Source: Vairimorpha necatrix
Taxonomy: Eukaryota
Direction of reading: 5' to 3'
Length of the DNA stretch: 64,000 bases
Assembly: GCA_036630325.1 (NCBI GenBank)
Contig: CP142728.1
Coordinates: 1,364,001-1,428,000 of the forward strand
Shown: piece after piece, positions 29,176 through 54,439 of the stretch
Numbering within the stretch: the stretch's first letter is position 1
Layout: every line of letters begins with the position of its first letter
The notes under the pieces: generated by a model
What the model saw: the letters and a program-made list of their open reading frames with translations, nothing else
What the model was told of the DNA's origin: nothing
Databases searched by the model: none
Position numbers and translations under genes: made by a program

Positions 29176-31418
29176 TTATTTAAAGGCATCTAAAGCTTTA
29201 GTAAATGATTCGTGCATTTTAATTCCTTCGGTCTTGTTCAATATTTCTAGAATTATTGTTTCATCTAACATCATTTTAACATTTTGAAAGATTTTTCTTA
29301 ATTTTACCTTTTCTACGTGACATATTTTCATTTCACTTTCGAATAAATTATTAAAAGCTTTAGGTAATTCAATCGAGGCCTGTTTTCTTAATCTAACTTC
29401 TATATTATTTCTCAAAATTTGTATAAAATCATCTTCTATTTCATTTTTATAATCATTTATTAATTCTTCTTGTGTTTCATTTTTTTTATAAATTCATTAA
29501 ATATATTTTCGATGATTATTTTTCCTTTTTTTATTTGTTCATTTTCATAATATGTTCTAATATCTTCGTCGAAAATATCTTTAAGCTCTTCTTCCAAGGG
29601 ATTTGATTTGATTATGTTTAAATCATAATCTAATGATGAGTTTTTTAACATTTCTCTTATTTTTTTTGTTTCTTGCTCTTTTAACTTTCTCTTTTTTTCA
29701 TATTCTTCATCTTCATCTGTGTTTTTTTGTAGATTATTTTTTATAATATTGGCCTTTTCCTCTATCTCATTTCCATCAAGTTGAAAGTTTTCACAAATTT
29801 CATTTCTTATGAAATCTTCCTTGGTATCTTTGTATACAAAACGCGAACTAGCCAATCCTGTAAATAATGATGTCATTTTGCATACATTTTTCAAAACTTC
29901 GTTTTTATATTTTATAATATTTTGGATATGGTAATTTTCTACTTCCTTTATGATTTTTACGATATTAATACATCTGCTATTTCTATCTGAACGAGATATC
30001 TTTTCATTATTTTTCTCTTGTATATATTCATTTATATCTATTAATATTTTCCAAATATATTCGTTGTTTATGTTTTTTTTATTAATATATTCTTCTGCTT
30101 CCAAAAGTAGGAAAATTTTTATTAAATAACAATCTGAAAATTGAAGCCCTGACAATCTATATGATAATTTTTTTATAATTTTGTTTTTATTATCTTCTTC
30201 ATTGTTTGATCTAAATATTATCTCACCTGTTGTGTAATCCAATTCATCTTCCTCTACGATGTACATATGTTTAATAATAAAATTAAAAATTAATTTTAAT
30301 GCAGTTTCTTGTTTGTTCATTATTCTCATTATGAGAAATTCAACTTTGTTGTAATTTTTTAGTAAAGTATAAAAAAATTCAACACATTTATAATCTTTTG
30401 TATTTGCTATAAAATTAATCTTTTCCAATATTTTCTTAATTTCATCAAAAAAATTATTGTTTATAAATTTTTTTTCACCATCGTCCTTGTTTGATTCATT
30501 TTTTAAATATACAGAATTTTTTGTATATCCATTAAAAAAGCTTATAGAGTCTAAGTGTACCTCTATTTTGAATTTTTTAGGCATTATCTTTTCGATTTTG
30601 TTGCGTGAAATTTCTAAACATCTAATTTCGCCCCTTGCCTCAATATGATACAAATCATTGACGTTGAAAATCTCATATATTTTTTTTAGTATTTTTGCAT
30701 CGTGATGACCCATATTTCTTGTATTTACTTCAGCAAAAGTATTAAGTTCTTTATTGTCAAGATCGTTTATATCGAATTTAAACAAATAAAACATGTTATG
30801 TATTATAACGCATAATCTAAAATAGTAACTAATATCGTCTTCGTTTCTGCTGTAACTTATCATGAATTCTGGTTCACGAAACTTATATCCGTTTTTTGAA
30901 TTGAAATTTTCTATTTCCAATAATATTTTGTCAAAATAACCATCCGCTGCATAGATATTCTCATAATAAATTTCAATTCCTTTCTTTTTAACTCTTCTTT
31001 TAGCATTTATTTGATTTAATTTTTCTATAATTTTTTTCACGATACTATTACTTTCTCTATATTCATATTGTGAGTATGACAATAAAATGTAGTCAATGCT
31101 TAAAGTAGATGTAATCTTCTTTATGAATTTTTCTATTTCTTCAATAATATTATAAGTGGATTTGTTAGCATAATCAATAATTATATACCCAAATTCATTA
31201 GAAATAGTTTCATTCAAAATATTATTCACAAGCAAACAACATAATTTCTTATTATTTTCATTACAAGTAATTTGTATTTGCGTATATTTCTTATTTAGGT
31301 TGAAAACTGTATACTTCCTATTCTCAATTTGCTTTAGTATAATTCCATTTATTTTGTTATAAATATTTATATTTGATTTTACAAACCAAATTACAACAAA
31401 AAATTTGATTATATTCAT
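29176..31418 (-). CDS. Uncharacterised, probably secreted protein (652 aa as assembled; 747 aa if one frameshift is corrected)
   Basis: Long ORF with CCCCTA immediately before the ATG, a short hydrophobic N-terminus and a charged, helical-looking C-terminus. One extra A in the 8-nt run at 29480-29487 joins it in frame to ORF 29176-29415. Confidence 0.85.
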
Positions 31419-31771
31419 TAGGGGAAAAATAAAATTAGTATTTTAATTGTTTTAAAAATTAAAAAAAATTTCTAATTTTAAAGAAATCGTAAAATTAACT
31501 GAAAATAAATTATCAAGGTTTTGAACTTAACATTTCAAAAATCTCATTTGGGTTGTACAAATCTTAATGGCTGTCAATAATTTTTTAAATTTTTTTGCAG
31601 AAATTTTAAAAAGAACAATATAGAAAGTAACTCGGCCAAAGTGAACTTTAGACAATATCTATTATAGACTTATAAGAAAAATTGAAAGGGTTTTCATTTG
31701 ATTCTAGAATCCGTGTAAAAATTATTATCATATTTTTTTTGTACGTGTTGTACTCAAAGCGGGGGTTCAAG

Positions 31772-32724
31772 GGCAGTCTGGTAGCCAAAAATCCCTTAAA
31801 AGGAATTTTTAAAAAATCACCCCAAAAATGAAAAGTCCAAGGGAAAAATTTAAAAATCATTTGAATAATTTTATCAAACAAATCCCCTTCAAAATTTCTT
31901 CTAAGCATAAATCTTACCAAAGAACTCTTTATTAATCTTTTCGTTCTATTCCTTATGGAAGTTTCACTTTTAACAGCGCTCCAATTACCTTCGATAGTAT
32001 TAGTATGGCATGAATTATTATTATTAACAAATTCTTTTGCATGATTAACCGTCTTATGTTGTTGAAAAATTGAACACAACCTAGAATATGAAGAGAAGCA
32101 ATCACTATGTATGATAGATTCTGGGTGAACATATTTAATTAAAAGTTCTTCAAGTGTAGTTGCTCTTCTATTATCAACAGAGGCAAACACAATTTTCCTT
32201 TGAGGTGTTCTTTCTACCATTCCGAAAATCCAAACAGCTTCTACCCTATGGCCTCTATGTTATTTTACTTTACCAAACTTACTTTCATCTATTTCCACAA
32301 CAATCCCAGGTCCTCCTATTATACCTGTTTCAACGTAAACAGAATTTTCGATGGAATTTACTGTTAAAGAAATGATTTTTCTTACACTTTTAATGCTAAT
32401 TCCAAGAAATTCCGCAATAGATTTATACTTTACATTAACAGACCATAATTTAATAATTAATAACATAGTATTAATTCGAAGCTTGTTATTGTAGAATGGA
32501 GTGTTTTTTAAAAAGACCATTTACTTCTACATTTAGACCAAGTACATCGAAAAATAAAATTTTCATTATATTTTTTACTTATAGAACCACATTTTATACA
32601 TGATTTGCTTGTTTTTTCAATATATTTTAAAAAAAATTTCAAAAAGTTTTTCCTCTTGACTTTTCATTTTTGGGGTGATTTTTTTAAAAATTCCTTTTAA
32701 GGGATTTTTGGCCACCAGACTGCC
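31772..32724 (-). mobile_element. Merlin transposon with ~66-bp TIRs and a frameshifted transposase
   Basis: TIRs GGCAGTCTGGTAGCCAAAAATCCCTTAAAAGGAATT... and ...GGGATTTTTGGCCACCAGACTGCC. Transposase from ATG 32667 contains CIKC, VEIDESKFGK, IHSDCFSSY, TVNH and HTNTIEGNWS. No matching TSD. Confidence 0.92.
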
Positions 32725-48071: not shown

Positions 48072-50061
48072 ATAAAATCAATAATTACATCGAACTATAT
48101 TTATCCAGAGGTAGCTCCTCTGGACTACGTCAATAATGAAAATTTAAAGTCTCAAAGAAACATAAGACATACGACAAAAATAAAATATAAACATCTATAT
48201 AGGAACACAACAACGAACATTCCATTCTGTTATTCTATATTAAAACAGTATTTTGAAATTATTGGTTATAATCTGTAAAAATATTATAAAATAAACTACA
48301 AAAAATTATTCAAATGAAAATAATTATAAATAATTAAGAAATAAATCTAATAATGGTCAGAAAACAATATAAATACATTTCGAATAATAAGATAATCAAT
48401 ATTTATACAAATTGTAAATTTATACACAAAACTAAGCTGGAAATGAATTTCGTATTTCTTAATATGAATTTTTCTAGTAAATATCATATATTCCACGTAT
48501 TTATTATTTATACTAAAATTATGATAAAAATAAAATCAAAATAAAACAGAATTAGTATTTTTACGAAAAAAAACTACACTAACCGAAGAATTTAAAAATA
48601 TAAATTAATAAGAGCTAATAAGGGTTAATAAAAAGTATAAACAAAACCCAATGCAACTAATTATTAGATAAAAATATATATCTGAGGATAATATAATGTA
48701 AGAGCGTATAAATTAAAAAAACAAATCTTATCTTTAATAATGACAGAAAATAGTTTAATGCATAAACCCAATTACATATTAAACATAGATGCGGTTGACG
48801 ATTAATATTAATTATTAAATAATATTTAATTTAAATATTAATTGATAAAAAAAATATAATAATAAATTGGTAAATTAAATTATAAAATTTTAACAAAAAA
48901 ATTTTTATGAATTTTTTTTGGAATAAACATTTTGATTTTCGTAGAATGAAATCAATCTAATGATTTAATTAAAAATTGGAATTTTTCAATAATCCATGAA
49001 AGTGTTACATCATAAAAAATACATTTTAATATACACATTATGTAAAACATTTTCATAGATAATGATAGGTTACTTTTAAACCATCCGCAATTTTTTACGC
49101 AATAATTTTGAATATACAACATATCGGAATCGCAAAAAATTTATCAATATTAACTGGTTATCAAATATATAAAACTGGTTCTCCTCATAATTGAAATTAT
49201 ATGAAGATCAATCAAGAAGTAAATCTAACGGTTATAACAGAAAATATAAAAACATATCTAGGAGATTATGATCACATAATCAAATATATTTCTTATAGAA
49301 TGTATTTTTTAATTATCCAATATTTTCACTCCCTCTTATTTTTAAAATATTATATTTTCTACCATAAAAAATTGAAGTCCAAAGAGAACATAAAAAATAG
49401 ACACCATATCATTTGTAATAATAAAAGAAATCCTGGACAGTTCGGCAAATACATAGATACATAGAATTGTACATTAGAAGAAGACGCATCCCTATGCAGC
49501 AGCCAAGTAAATATAAATATTCGATAAAAATTTAAAAAAACAATTTTTTTTCTAAAATTTCTTATGTTATAAAAATAAATTAAATCATATTAATTTATAC
49601 ATAAATCTTAATTACTTTTATTGATCTATTTTTATATCACGTAATTTTATAGTGAAATATTCAACTGTAATTAGTTATTCGTATTGTATTTTTAAACAAA
49701 CACTGGAATCTAGTCCTTAATGTTTCCAAATTATCACGTCATTTTACTTTCTTGGAAAAATGATTCAATTTTATTATTCAAAGTATTTATCATAAGCTTT
49801 CCTAAAGATTATGAGCTCCTATGTCTGTATATATGCGTTAGTAAGCTTTCGAGATTTAAGTTATTTGTATAATATCCCTAAAATATTTTTTTTCTATTAT
49901 AATACGAATATTTCCAGTAAGAAATATGTCAAAACACAAGAATGACATTTTTTACAATAATATATTACAAAATAAAGACATGATTCAATACTTTTACAAT
50001 ATATTTTTACATAAATTTATTCGCAGAATTACACCAAAAATACTTTGTGTTTTAATTATAA

Positions 50062-53000
50062 TGTTAAAGTTGAACCTCCTATTAAATAAATGTATAACAT
50101 GGCAAACACAAAAGATGAAAGGGTAAAAGTGAGACCTGTGTTTAAGAGAAGAGAAAATTACTAAAAGAAGCCCAGAGAGTTGAAGCAATCATCAGAATGC
50201 AGAAAGATGTAAAAGATGTGACAACAAAGCAGTCGATAAAACAAGTAAGTTCCTGAACTTCAGGATTTTATTATTGATAAAAATTTGATCAGTATGATTA
50301 ATTGGAATGATATTATTGATGAAATTGATAAATTAGTTGTTGAAAAGAAAGAGAATAAGAACAAGGAAAAATTAAGGAGTAGAGAACTCGAAGATATGGT
50401 AGAGGTTATGAAAGAAAAATTAAAAAGAAGATTAAAGAATAACTGACTAGGACTGTAGCAGTACCGGGAAGAAACTTTCAATATCAAAGACGAGAAGAAA
50501 ACCATTGTTTTATATGTGGAAGAATTATACATATAGCTAGAGATTGTATGGAGCGTAAAGGAAGACAGGAAGAGAATAATGAAAATAAAAGGGAAAAATA
50601 TTTTGGCATTCGTGATAATAGAAAATTGAAAATATTAAAAGGAAATGATTTTAAATTGAGACTACCAGTGGAGGTAGAAAGAAGAACTCAAGAAACAGTT
50701 TTTATGTAAAAAAAACGAAACAAGATAAAAGGGGTAAATATTAATAAATTAGAAGAAATGAGAGGAAAATTTCCAGAAGTATTAGGAAATGACGAAGAGT
50801 AAATAAAATACTTAACAGGGGGAAAATATTCTATCAAAACAAAACAAGGAGTGAAAGTAGTTATAAAAAGACAAAATATTTCTTATAATTCGAGAAAAGT
50901 TAGAAAAGTATATTAATTTAAAAGAAAGTAGAGGTATTTTCAGAATGACAAAGAGCGAATGGAGAAGCCCAATAAGTACTATAGAAAAACTAAATGGTGA
51001 AGTACAATTTAGAAGCAATTTGATGGCTTTAAACGAACTGGTGCAAAAAGATCCGTATGAATTGTCATTGATTAGAGACATTATTAGGGCAACATAAGGT
51101 TCTATTGTATTTATGGTTATAGAACTAAAGGAAGGATTCTATCATATAGAAATTAAGAAAACTCAAAAGCATAAGAAAGCTTTTGAGATAAATGTTAGAG
51201 TTTACAAAAAGAATAGCATGGTAATGGGATTTAAAAATCTTCCTATTTTATGTAAAAAGTGATGAACGGAGTTTTAGATAAGTTTAGAGGCAAGAGTGTT
51301 GAGGTGTACATGGATGATATTATTATTATTCATGCAAGAGATAGTAATATACACGAAAATTTATTAAAACAAGTAATTCGATTATTTAACGAATGTGGAT
51401 AAAAAAAACTTAAAAAAAATACAATATAAAGGAGAAGTAAAACTACTTGGAGTAACAATTAACGGAGAAGACATTACACCAAATGAAATTTAAAAGCAAG
51501 AGACATTAGAATACAGAAGGCCTAACAAGATGAAAGAGCTTAAGAGATTTGAGGACGTGCAGGCTGGTTAAGAGATTTTATTCCCCATTATGCTTATGTT
51601 TCAGCGCTTCTTACAGAAGCACTAAAAAAAGATGTTAAATGGGAATGGTCCGAACATATGGAAAGAGCTCTTATGGATATCAAAGAGGGTTTAAAGGATG
51701 TGAAAAAATTAAAAATGGTAGATAGTAAAAAAATGTGTAGAGTAAGGACAGATGCATACGATACGGGAACTTGAGCTATACTATTGCAAGAAGACAAAGA
51801 AGGAAGGTGGAATCAGATACAATGGGCATCAAAAATGTTAACAGCAACAGAAAAAAGGTATATGATTAATGAAAAAGTGATGTTGACAGTGTTATTTGGA
51901 ATAAAGAAATTCGAATCCGATTTGAGAGAAGCAAATTTCATTAAATGACAAATCATAAAGAACTGGCTGAGATTAGAAACAAACCGTTTCGCAAAACTAA
52001 CAAAAATAATAGATGGATAAAAAACATACAAGAGTTCGATTTTACTATTGAATATGTAAAAGGAGAATGGATGACGGATGTAGATGCTCTTAGTAGACAA
52101 TTTAAAAATAACAAAGTTATAAAAAAAGCAGCGAAAGATAGAAACGGACTTAAAAACAGATGAAAGGGAGAGAAATAAAGCGCATGGTTAAAAGAGAAGG
52201 TAAAAACTATTTGAAGTTCTCAACAGGAGAAATTAAAGAACTACTACACAAAGAACTAAGAGAGACAGAAATTCCAGAGTTCATGAGGATTTAAATCATC
52301 GAGGAGTGAAAAACTTATTATAAGGAAAAACAAAGACTGTACTGGCAAGGTATTGGACCAGATAACCACAACGCTAAAAAATTGTAAAGTATGTAGCATT
52401 AATAACATAAAAACGACTGGAGATCCAAATTTGTAACAACATTTAAGAAATTAGAAAAAGTAGCTTTAGACGTAATGGATATTGAGGAAAAAGAAAAATA
52501 CGTGCTATTAGGGACTGACTCCTTTACGAGAAGAGTATGGGGCGCAAAGATGGAAAATAAGGGAAATGATGTTATTACGAAAATTTTAGGATAATGGATA
52601 AATGAAGATGGATGCCTAGATGAATATTTCGGATAACGGTAAGGAATTTGTCAGTCAGAAGTTTGTAACTTGGTGTAAAGAAAATGGAATAATGCAATGG
52701 AAAGTATATTTAGAAGCTCATAGGGTTAATTGGAGAATAGAACGATGTATTTGAACAATAAGGGAACCGATGATCAAAAAAAAAGAAGGAAACCCAGAGG
52801 AAAAACTAGAACAAGCTGCAAGAACCTATAATAACACTCTACACACAGCGATTAAATGTACACAAATGGAAGCATGGAAAGAACAAGGAAAAGAAGTCTT
52901 AATTGAAAACAATAAAAAGAATGTGTATGCAAGTAAGTTTAAACAAAAGCATAGAGAAAAATTTGAAGTAGATCAGGCTGTGAGAATCGCAAGATAAAAA

Positions 53001-53233
53001 ACTTGGGTAAATAGATGAAAAGTACAAAAGGAAGATTTACAAGTGTCGGTAAAATATTCGGAAAGTATAGAATGATTCTTATTTTGTAAGGACTGATAGC
53101 GGAAGATACATTAAGAAAGACATTATGACCTAGAATTTTATAAAAATGATAAATTAGAAGCTTGTAACCTGAGACTACCCGTTTGAAGGAGAAATGTTAG
53201 GGTTGAACTTTCCTATTAAATAAATGTATAACA
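50062..53233 (+). mobile_element. Full-length degenerate Ty3/gypsy retrotransposon with 38/39-bp LTRs
   Basis: LTRs TGTTAAAGTTGAACCTCCTATTAAATAAATGTATAACA (50062-50099) and TGTTAGGGTTGAACTTTCCTATTAAATAAATGTATAACA (53195-53233). TSD TATAA. TGG follows the 5' LTR. PPT GAAGGAGAAA. Gag knuckle CFICGRIIHIARDC, RT YMDD (~51307), RNase H RTDA and TNHK, integrase HEDLNHRG/CKVC, DNGKEF and RIER. Confidence 0.95.
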
Positions 53234-53396
53234 TATAATCATTAATCTGAAAAAAAAATAATTGAATAAAAAAAATAGTTAGATAAATTTTTATTAAAAA
53301 TTTTCTTTTTTTATTTATTTTAGTTACATATTGATTTAACTGATAAATTTTTTAAACAAAAGATTGAGGAAGTTTTGAGGGCTAAAAGCTTACGTG

Positions 53397-53446
53397 TTAG
53401 TTAGGTTAGGTAGGTAGGTAGGGTAGGTAGTAGGTTAGGTAGGTGT
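53397..53446 (+). repeat. Degenerate TTAGG/TAGG telomere-like tract
   Basis: TTAGTTAGGTTAGGTAGGTAGGTAGGGTAGGTAGTAGGTTAGGTAGGTG. Confidence 0.7.
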
Positions 53447-54439
53447 ATCTGTTATATTAAAAAATGTAAAGTTTGAAAAAGAGAAAAACTAAACTTTAAT
53501 TTATTTTTGAATTCTAGCCATAAAATTAGAATATGTTGCACCGAAAGCATTATATACCTTTTCTATATTCTTTAAATAGACTATATATCGACTCTTTAAC
53601 ATTAATCAAAAATTTATCTAGAGAAGCCTAATAAAGAATAGAAAGAAACAAATAGTAAGTAAAATCATACAGTAAAATATAATATGACAAGTTTTTCGCA
53701 AATAAATTTTTAATTTTATAATTACGCACTTTTATTCGAACATAAAATGTTATTTGAAAACATTTAAAAAAGAAAAATAAATTAGTAATTTTTTATCCAA
53801 CACATGACAAGAATAATATTTGTTTTGTTTTTCGTCCCATTGAGTCATATACTAAGATCTAAAAGATCTATCAATTTCATAAAAAATTTGTAATATATCA
53901 AAATAAATTTTAAAAGAAAACTTATCGCAAATTGTTTAAAAATTTAGCATTTAGAACTTCATACTATAGGCATAATTTCTCAAAGTCAAAAAATGATGTT
54001 TATACAAAAAGGTTTACAATTAATAATTATTAGAAAATTATCTAGAATTAAAAGCAATTTTTTTAGATTAAAGTTTTCTTCTTAGAAAATGAGTTTAGTT
54101 TTTTATGTAAAAGCTATTTAAATATAAAAATTAATATTTTTTTATTAAAAAATTTCAGTCATACGAAAATAGTAGAATATACAAATTTTAATAATTTAAT
54201 AATAGTATATCAATAAATATACTAAAGAATATAATCATTACGAAAAAAAGAACCTTCTAATATGTTTAATTTGATATCATTAGTCACAATTCAATATTTT
54301 ATAAATGATCAAGCTTATTATCATAAATAAACTAAAATGAAAAATATAGAAAAAGATTAAATATATGGTTTAATAACAGAAATAATTCACTACTTAATCA
54401 CTTGAAACGGTATAGTGACCAAGTTCCACAAATCATATA

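Follow-up and report, generated by a model that had tools for sequence, protein, structure and literature searches.

Terminal repeats of 38–39 nucleotides delimit a compact Ty3/gypsy retrotransposon lineage in Vairimorpha necatrix

The DNA analysed here, referred to as the window, comprises 64,000 nucleotides (nt) of Vairimorpha necatrix (assembly GCA_036630325.1, contig CP142728.1, positions 1,364,001 to 1,428,000 of the forward strand). At 50062-53233 it carries, on the plus strand, a Ty3/gypsy element of 3,172 bp, el1, whose long terminal repeats (LTRs) are far shorter than the conventional range. The 5' LTR (50062-50099, +) has 38 nt, TGTTAAAGTTGAACCTCCTATTAAATAAATGTATAACA, and the 3' LTR (53195-53233, +) has 39 nt, TGTTAGGGTTGAACTTTCCTATTAAATAAATGTATAACA. 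The two copies are identical at 35 of 39 aligned positions, including an exact core of 24 nt, and both start with TGTTA, end with TAACA and contain AATAAA. The 5' LTR also holds CCTCC, TATTAAATAAATG (which carries the AATAAA) and an in-frame ATG at 50090. It is directly followed, from 50100, by TGGCAAACAC, which begins with TGG, while the polypurine tract GAAGGAGAAA (53185-53194, +) directly adjoins the 3' LTR. The outer flanks are the two copies of an exact target-site duplication (TSD), TATAA, at 50057-50061 and 53234-53238. A preliminary description of this DNA had given the same coordinates, repeat lengths, inverted ends and TSD, and had placed the polypurine tract at the 3' copy, TGG at the 5' copy and AATAAA inside; direct reading of the letters showed all of these to be correct.

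The terminal repeats stand well outside chance expectation. The window contains two occurrences of a 22-nt core of the LTR, where 0.03 would be expected, and none of 100 shuffles contained it two or more times; for the 39-nt LTR pattern the expected number of occurrences is 0.00. Because the core count and the 39-nt expectation lie so far beyond the shuffles, a chance repeat was rejected as the source of the el1 ends. Outside the repeats, the LTR flanks show 56% and 51% identity, compared with shuffled means of 50.6% and 51.0%, and are thus unrelated. Terminal direct repeats of the TG...CA type and a short TSD (4-6 bp), both typical of LTR elements, are present in el1. The TG...CA ends and the intact 5-bp TSD show that el1 was inserted with exactly these boundaries, as the preliminary description had proposed.

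Between the repeats, the coding signal of el1 lies on the plus strand only, and the Pfam fragments follow one another in the order zf-CCHC, RVT_1, RT_RNaseH/RT_RNaseH_2 and rve. A start codon, A|TG, spans the junction between the LTR and the primer-binding site (PBS) and is followed by PBS-like TGGCAAACACAAAAG (50099-50115, +), opening a frame that reads MANTKDE. The gag zinc knuckle CFICGRIIHIARDC (50503-50550, +) was read by eye, its zf-CCHC match (E=0.0026) being below the Pfam cut-off. Next come a reverse transcriptase (RT; 50777-51550, +) with YMDD at ~51310, recognised from RVT_1 fragments and interrupted by stops and frameshifts, and a broken RNase H (51553-52160, +; RT_RNaseH E=1.7e-10, with RT_RNaseH_2). 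In tblastn searches with the intact protein of the related contig L004 (described below), the RT region is 46-50% identical and the RNase H is matched as well. The integrase (52142-53056, +), also broken, comprises a zinc-finger region, a DDE core with an rve fragment (E=0.0002) and a C-terminal part, and matches residues 557-864 of the L004 protein. Compared with an intact relative, el1 has at least six frame changes and many in-frame stops; the copy is dead.

A single further relative, el2, was found in the window by blastn and tblastn, at ~5450-8760. Its 5' LTR (5452-5489, +) has 38 nt and is homologous to the LTRs of el1 and L004, and its 3' LTR (8722-8760, +) has 39 nt, is preceded by the purine tract GAGGATGGGA and is 74% identical to the LTR of L004. 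The interior (5490-8721, +) includes a zinc knuckle, RT, RNase H and the H2C2 and core regions of integrase, all with stops and frameshifts. Both el1 and el2 fragments therefore show the RT - RNase H - integrase order that defines gypsy elements, and a gag CCHC knuckle is found in el2 (E=1.1e-5) and in the relatives P0007, P0010 and P0020 as well as in el1. The el2 terminal repeats are placed precisely where the element was expected to end, with a spacing of 3,270 nt; they are identical at 30 of 39 positions, the highest value in 300 shuffles being 66%, and align with the el1 repeats in TGT..., the C-rich motif and TAATAAATAAATG. The two elements share 64% DNA identity over 1.3 kb and 31-62% identity between protein pieces. 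Thus el2 is a decayed and diverged element of the el1 lineage.

A third member has an undamaged reading frame. It lies on the 3,024-bp contig L004 (its element is L006) from the public prokaryotic bin G001, titled Clostridium sp., and has an uninterrupted frame of 911 codons in which the YMDD, RNase H and integrase motifs are all intact; the Pfam domains are RVT_1 (residues 165-324), RT_RNaseH (414-517), Integrase_H2C2 (592-647) and rve (664-745). Its DNA is ~66% identical to el1 and likewise to el2, and it therefore represents a third family. At its 3' end the purine tract GGAGGAGGGGA is followed by a 38-nt LTR (2724-2761, TGTTGGG...CCCCTATTAAATAAATGACTAACA) and then by unrelated flank; the reading frame runs across the purine tract and stops at TAG (2735-37) inside the LTR. 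The purine tracts that precede the LTR are homologous in el1, el2 and L004. Identity of the 3' LTRs is 74% for both L004/el1 and L004/el2, higher than in all 300 shuffles, compared with 62-68% in the adjoining interior, and over the 60 nt past the 3' LTR it falls to 52%, the shuffle mean. Hence the 38-39-nt LTR has been inherited in at least three families and is shown to be a family trait and not a deletion remnant. The preliminary description had postulated a miniaturised LTR family, and the homologous repeats in el1, el2 and the intact-ORF (open reading frame) element L004 bear this out. It had also named two findings that would speak for longer ancestral repeats, namely long LTRs in the same RT clade and similarity between copies extending past the repeats. 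Neither was found: the three ~66%-identical families carry repeats of 38-39 nt, the next relative measured has 58 bp, and identity drops to the shuffle mean immediately outside the LTR.

These data bear directly on whether the 38/39-nt repeats could be deletion remnants of conventional LTRs of at least 100 bp. In more distant relatives the LTRs do measure 125 to about 286 bp, and two Anncaliia algerae consensus ends given in Supplementary File S1 of PMC4202319 have LTRs of ~190-215 bp by our own count, with AGTTGG...CCAACC ends, as against 38-39 bp and TGT...ACA ends here. However, such an origin would require the same deletion in both copies of an element, leaving the TG...CA ends, the contact with the polypurine tract and TGG, and the 5-bp TSD in place; moreover, the 38-39-nt unit is common to three diverged families, including the intact-ORF member L004. 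Given the homologous unit in el1, el2 and L004 and the intact TSD of el1, we consider a deletion remnant very improbable and reject it. It could also be argued that the elements are processed retro-copies which other machinery made from a gypsy mRNA, in which case the repeats would correspond to the repeated (R) segment only; absent or very short LTRs are taken as a hint of processed pseudogenes in a passage of the RetroTector paper (PMC1976444). Yet no unique 5' (U5) segment separates the repeat from TGG and no unique 3' (U3) segment separates the purine tract from the repeat, the termini read TG...CA, the TSD has the 5 bp made by integrases, no poly(A) tail adjoins the 3' repeat, and the structure recurs in three families. 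A processed pseudogene was rejected on account of these ends, the TSD, the missing poly(A) tail and the likeness of the three families, and we attach hardly any probability to it.

A 166-residue part of the el2 RT/RNase H region, used as HMMER query, retrieved relatives at 48-60% identity. Of the six closest proteins looked up, only two carry names, Vairimorpha necatrix and Nosema granulosis, both of them microsporidian; one relative is annotated as 'Pol polyprotein from transposon 17.6'. The V. necatrix gypsy polyprotein has 44 matches in the bin G001, spread over numerous small contigs (C340, C261, C375, C373, C351, C348, C232 and others), and these gypsy contigs are almost certainly eukaryotic contamination binned by A+T content. 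We examined seven sister contigs with long open frames, L006 and L008-L013. Besides the 38 bp of L006, where only the 3' LTR is present, the LTRs measure 58 bp in L008 and 75 bp in L011 (two copies each, 100% identical), 176/172 bp in L010 (two copies), about 125 bp in L012 and about 286 bp in L009 (one collapsed copy each), and over 270 bp in L013, where the 5' junction was not located. The 38-nt LTR is thus the extreme of a continuum from 38 to about 286 bp among related elements and no isolated oddity. A quick maximum-likelihood analysis of 17 pol proteins, the tree being midpoint-rooted for drawing only, placed L006 together with P0008 and the V. necatrix protein (Shimodaira-Hasegawa-like approximate likelihood-ratio test, SH-aLRT, 97); this group is nested in a clade (support 100) to which the element with 58-bp LTRs also belongs, and those with longer LTRs (75 to about 286 bp) are in the other clade.

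The sister contigs also share the design of the junctions. In all five contigs whose 5' junction could be located (L008-L012), the LTR ends in CA and is followed by TGG, and an in-frame A|TG start is therefore formed across the junction. The N-termini read from these starts are MVENN, MENIN, MATAIK, MATATK and MVKQD, and the el1 junction is alike (TAACA|TGGCA, giving MANTKDE). MAS stands at or near the N-terminus of two further relatives (P0020, MASAVNK...; P0007, ...DMASPDEN...), and CCCATG occurs a few codons upstream within the LTR of L010 (3' LTR) and L011. A single gag-pol ORF is present in L006, L008, L010 and L011. At the other end, the ORF stops within the 3' LTR in L004, L008 and L010, and 12 nt before the LTR in L011. 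In intact relatives the ORF is thereby shown to overlap both LTRs (for the stop, in L004, L008 and L010). Beyond the 3' LTRs of L010 (~4025-4174) and L011 (reverse strand, ~3751-4011), peptides resembling protease and integrase of other retroelements were recognised by eye, which suggests nested insertions or chimeric assembly.

A retropepsin-type protease, usually placed between gag and RT, is not recognisable in the 38-nt clade. No protease family was matched at E<=0.01 in L006, P0007, P0010, P0020 or P0030, each of which includes the region from the knuckle to RT, and residues 32-164 of L006 gave no protease match even at E<=10 and, by eye, no D-T/S-G motif. The distance from the knuckle to Pfam RVT_1 is only about 120-135 residues. 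Protease matches were obtained in 4 of the 14 proteins scanned (P0058, P0060, L010 and L011), so more distant relatives (L010, L011 and P0060) do carry the enzyme.

Taken together, el1 is very probably an old, inactivated insertion of a very compact Ty3/gypsy element of autonomous type, with an LTR reduced to 38-39 bp and coding sequence over almost its entire length. In the mechanism that we favour, TGTTA and TAACA would be the integrase attachment (att) ends, and CC(T/C)C at LTR positions 14-18 (CCTCC in el1, CCCC in el2 and L004) would be a microsporidian CCC-like promoter signal. Transcription would start a few bases downstream of CC(T/C)C, before the ATG, and AATAAA at positions 24-29 of the 3' LTR would direct cleavage at or just past the LTR end, so that R and U5 together would amount to only ~10-20 nt, a length that may suffice for minus-strand transfer once priming has taken place at the TGG that adjoins the LTR in el1 and L008-L012. 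The polypurine tract would prime the plus strand. Passages of PMC2803860 describe a CCC-like signal directly upstream of microsporidian start codons, 5' untranslated regions (UTRs) of less than 7 nt and AAUAAA near the stop codon. From the arrangement of these motifs we infer that a CCC-like promoter, a poly(A) signal and an R region could be accommodated within 38 nt. Folding of the RNA of 50062-50180 gave no structure beyond that of shuffled sequences (z=+1.53).

The main alternative to this mechanism is that the 38-nt LTR has no working promoter and corresponds to R over its whole length, transcription being supplied by read-through, by a flanking host promoter or by one inside the coding region, and the protease-less family relying on other elements or on host enzymes. 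Only ~18 nt lie upstream of the A/T-rich block, AATAAA is near the LTR end, no protease was found in the 38-nt clade, and transcriptional overrun is described as frequent in Encephalitozoon cuniculi in part of PMC2803860; all of these would fit an external or internal promoter. On the other hand, the succession of CC(T/C)C, A/T-rich block and ATG has been kept in three families that are only ~66% identical, and conservation of the LTR is no lower than that of the adjacent interior (74% versus 62-68%). CCCATG recurs in the longer LTRs of L010 and L011 and agrees with the microsporidian start-site signal presented in passages of PMC2803860. We consider a promoter outside the LTR unlikely. A promoter within the repeat leads to a more far-reaching proposal, namely that these elements represent the smallest self-encoding LTR design so far, ~3.2 kb long, with 38-nt LTRs in which att sites, a CCC-type promoter, the poly(A) signal, the integrase stop and the gag start are superimposed, an R of ~10-20 nt and no protease of its own; we advance it tentatively, at somewhat less than even chances.

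Several observations weigh against el1 as a compact element working from such repeats. Among the 38-nt families, no copy was found that combines an intact ORF with two LTRs; the 5' end is missing from L004, and both el1 and el2 have decayed. The el2 flanks are TTTTA and TTCAT, so that its TSD is not intact, and an intact TSD is present in el1 only; none was seen on the metagenomic sister contigs, the flanks of which are perhaps chimeric or nested. The AATAAA lies only 9 nt from the LTR end, and at the usual distance from it the cleavage site would be outside the element, in the flank. The bases after TGG are coding and differ between families, no matching tRNA was identified, and a tRNA scan gave 0 tRNA genes in the window. 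The promoter, the poly(A) site and the boundaries of R are themselves inferred, and a family that has no protease may not be truly autonomous.

Canonical Ty3/gypsy elements have LTRs of a few hundred bp and are about 5 kb long. The lineage described here shares with Ty3, Tf1 and 17.6 (Metaviridae) the LTR-PBS-gag-pol-PPT-LTR layout (PPT, polypurine tract), the TG...CA ends, the 5-bp TSD and the RT_RNaseH and Integrase_H2C2 domains, and differs from the canonical form in its 38-39-bp LTRs, its length of 3.17 kb, the lack of a protease match and the overlap of the ORF with both LTRs. The shortest LTRs described for coding elements are, to our knowledge, around 70-80 bp. A full-text literature search returned no coding LTR retrotransposon, and no microsporidian one, with LTRs below 100 bp, and a prior description is possible. 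As in the microsporidian Ty3/gypsy groups of Parisot et al. (2014, PMC4202319), one polyprotein ORF encodes gag, RT, RNase H and integrase in this order, and the elements occur alongside Merlin/IS1595-type transposases in an AT-rich genome. In contrast to those microsporidian elements, the 38-nt clade has no recognisable protease.

LTRs of less than 100 bp also occur in plant terminal-repeat retrotransposons in miniature (TRIMs), which a section of PMC10741241 describes as non-coding and 250-1,500 bp long. Classification of el1 as a TRIM was rejected, since its lineage encodes gag, RT, RNase H and integrase. The same section states that LTR_Finder has a default minimum LTR of 100 bp and misses the LTRs of TRIMs, and the supposition in the preliminary description that LTR finders would pass over the el1 family agrees with this default; standard LTR software would overlook the family because its repeats measure only 38-39 bases. 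Families missed in this way would bias counts of intact LTR elements, dating by LTR divergence and censuses of solo LTRs. If the 38-nt LTRs are functional, the cis signals minimally required for transcription, strand transfer and integration would form a far smaller set than textbook LTRs contain, and genome compaction would act on a selfish element as it does on microsporidian host genes with their tiny UTRs and overlapping signals. Should the smallest-design proposal hold, it would set a new lower bound on LTR content and imply that annotations of microsporidian genomes systematically overlook intact LTR elements. For organisms without genetic tools, a short LTR of known layout could moreover serve as a convenient natural promoter/terminator of minimal size.

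We also searched for further copies. The el1 family is multi-copy in two public sequencing runs, with 449 and 392 contig pieces at a likeness of at least 80%. Contigs of four runs were compared with the window, and among the matches listed none ends at 50062 or 53233; these contigs do not inform the boundaries. Run X2 has no cover over 49531-50061 and 53602-53955, from which no inference was drawn. With an nhmmer profile built from five LTR copies, the window and 25 loci yielded no additional (solo) LTR; the one extra match had E=3.7. A search of the metagenome-assembled genome G001 for the el1 5' region and el1-type LTRs gave only the known LTR and one 30-nt match at chance level. Viral contig scans returned no relatives, and blastn against a phage collection no match. 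A metagenome contig scan yielded 3 short contigs only, without element ends, and a word-indexed protein search only 3 weak matches.

The surroundings of el1 contain other repeats. The upstream flank 49000-49353 is multi-copy in runs X1 and X2, with 6-13 contigs sharing variant letters, and el1 therefore sits in other repeated DNA. At 53396-53444, 160 nt downstream of el1, lies a TAGG / GTTAGGTAG array of ~11 copies with a 4-nt period, which resembles telomere repeats of the TTAGG type; the bin that holds this array has the highest summed contig depth in run X2. The G+C content of the window is 19-33%, and it contains only two ATG-started ORFs of at least 150 codons, one of which is an IS1595/Merlin-type transposase fragment. 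An IS1595/ISXO2-type (Merlin-like) transposase ORF of 190 codons is found at 31648-32220 (-; DDE_Tnp_IS1595 E=5.8e-11, Pfam), and translations judged by eye point to further fragments of IS1595/ISXO2-type transposase at 2645-4577 (+). Merlin-like DNA transposons of the IS1595 type have been reported to be abundant in microsporidia. Finally, no Pfam family matches a 652-codon ORF at 29460-31418 (-), the N-terminal part of which looks, by eye, like the frame at the left edge of the window (2-913, -); the two may represent a lineage-specific gene family.

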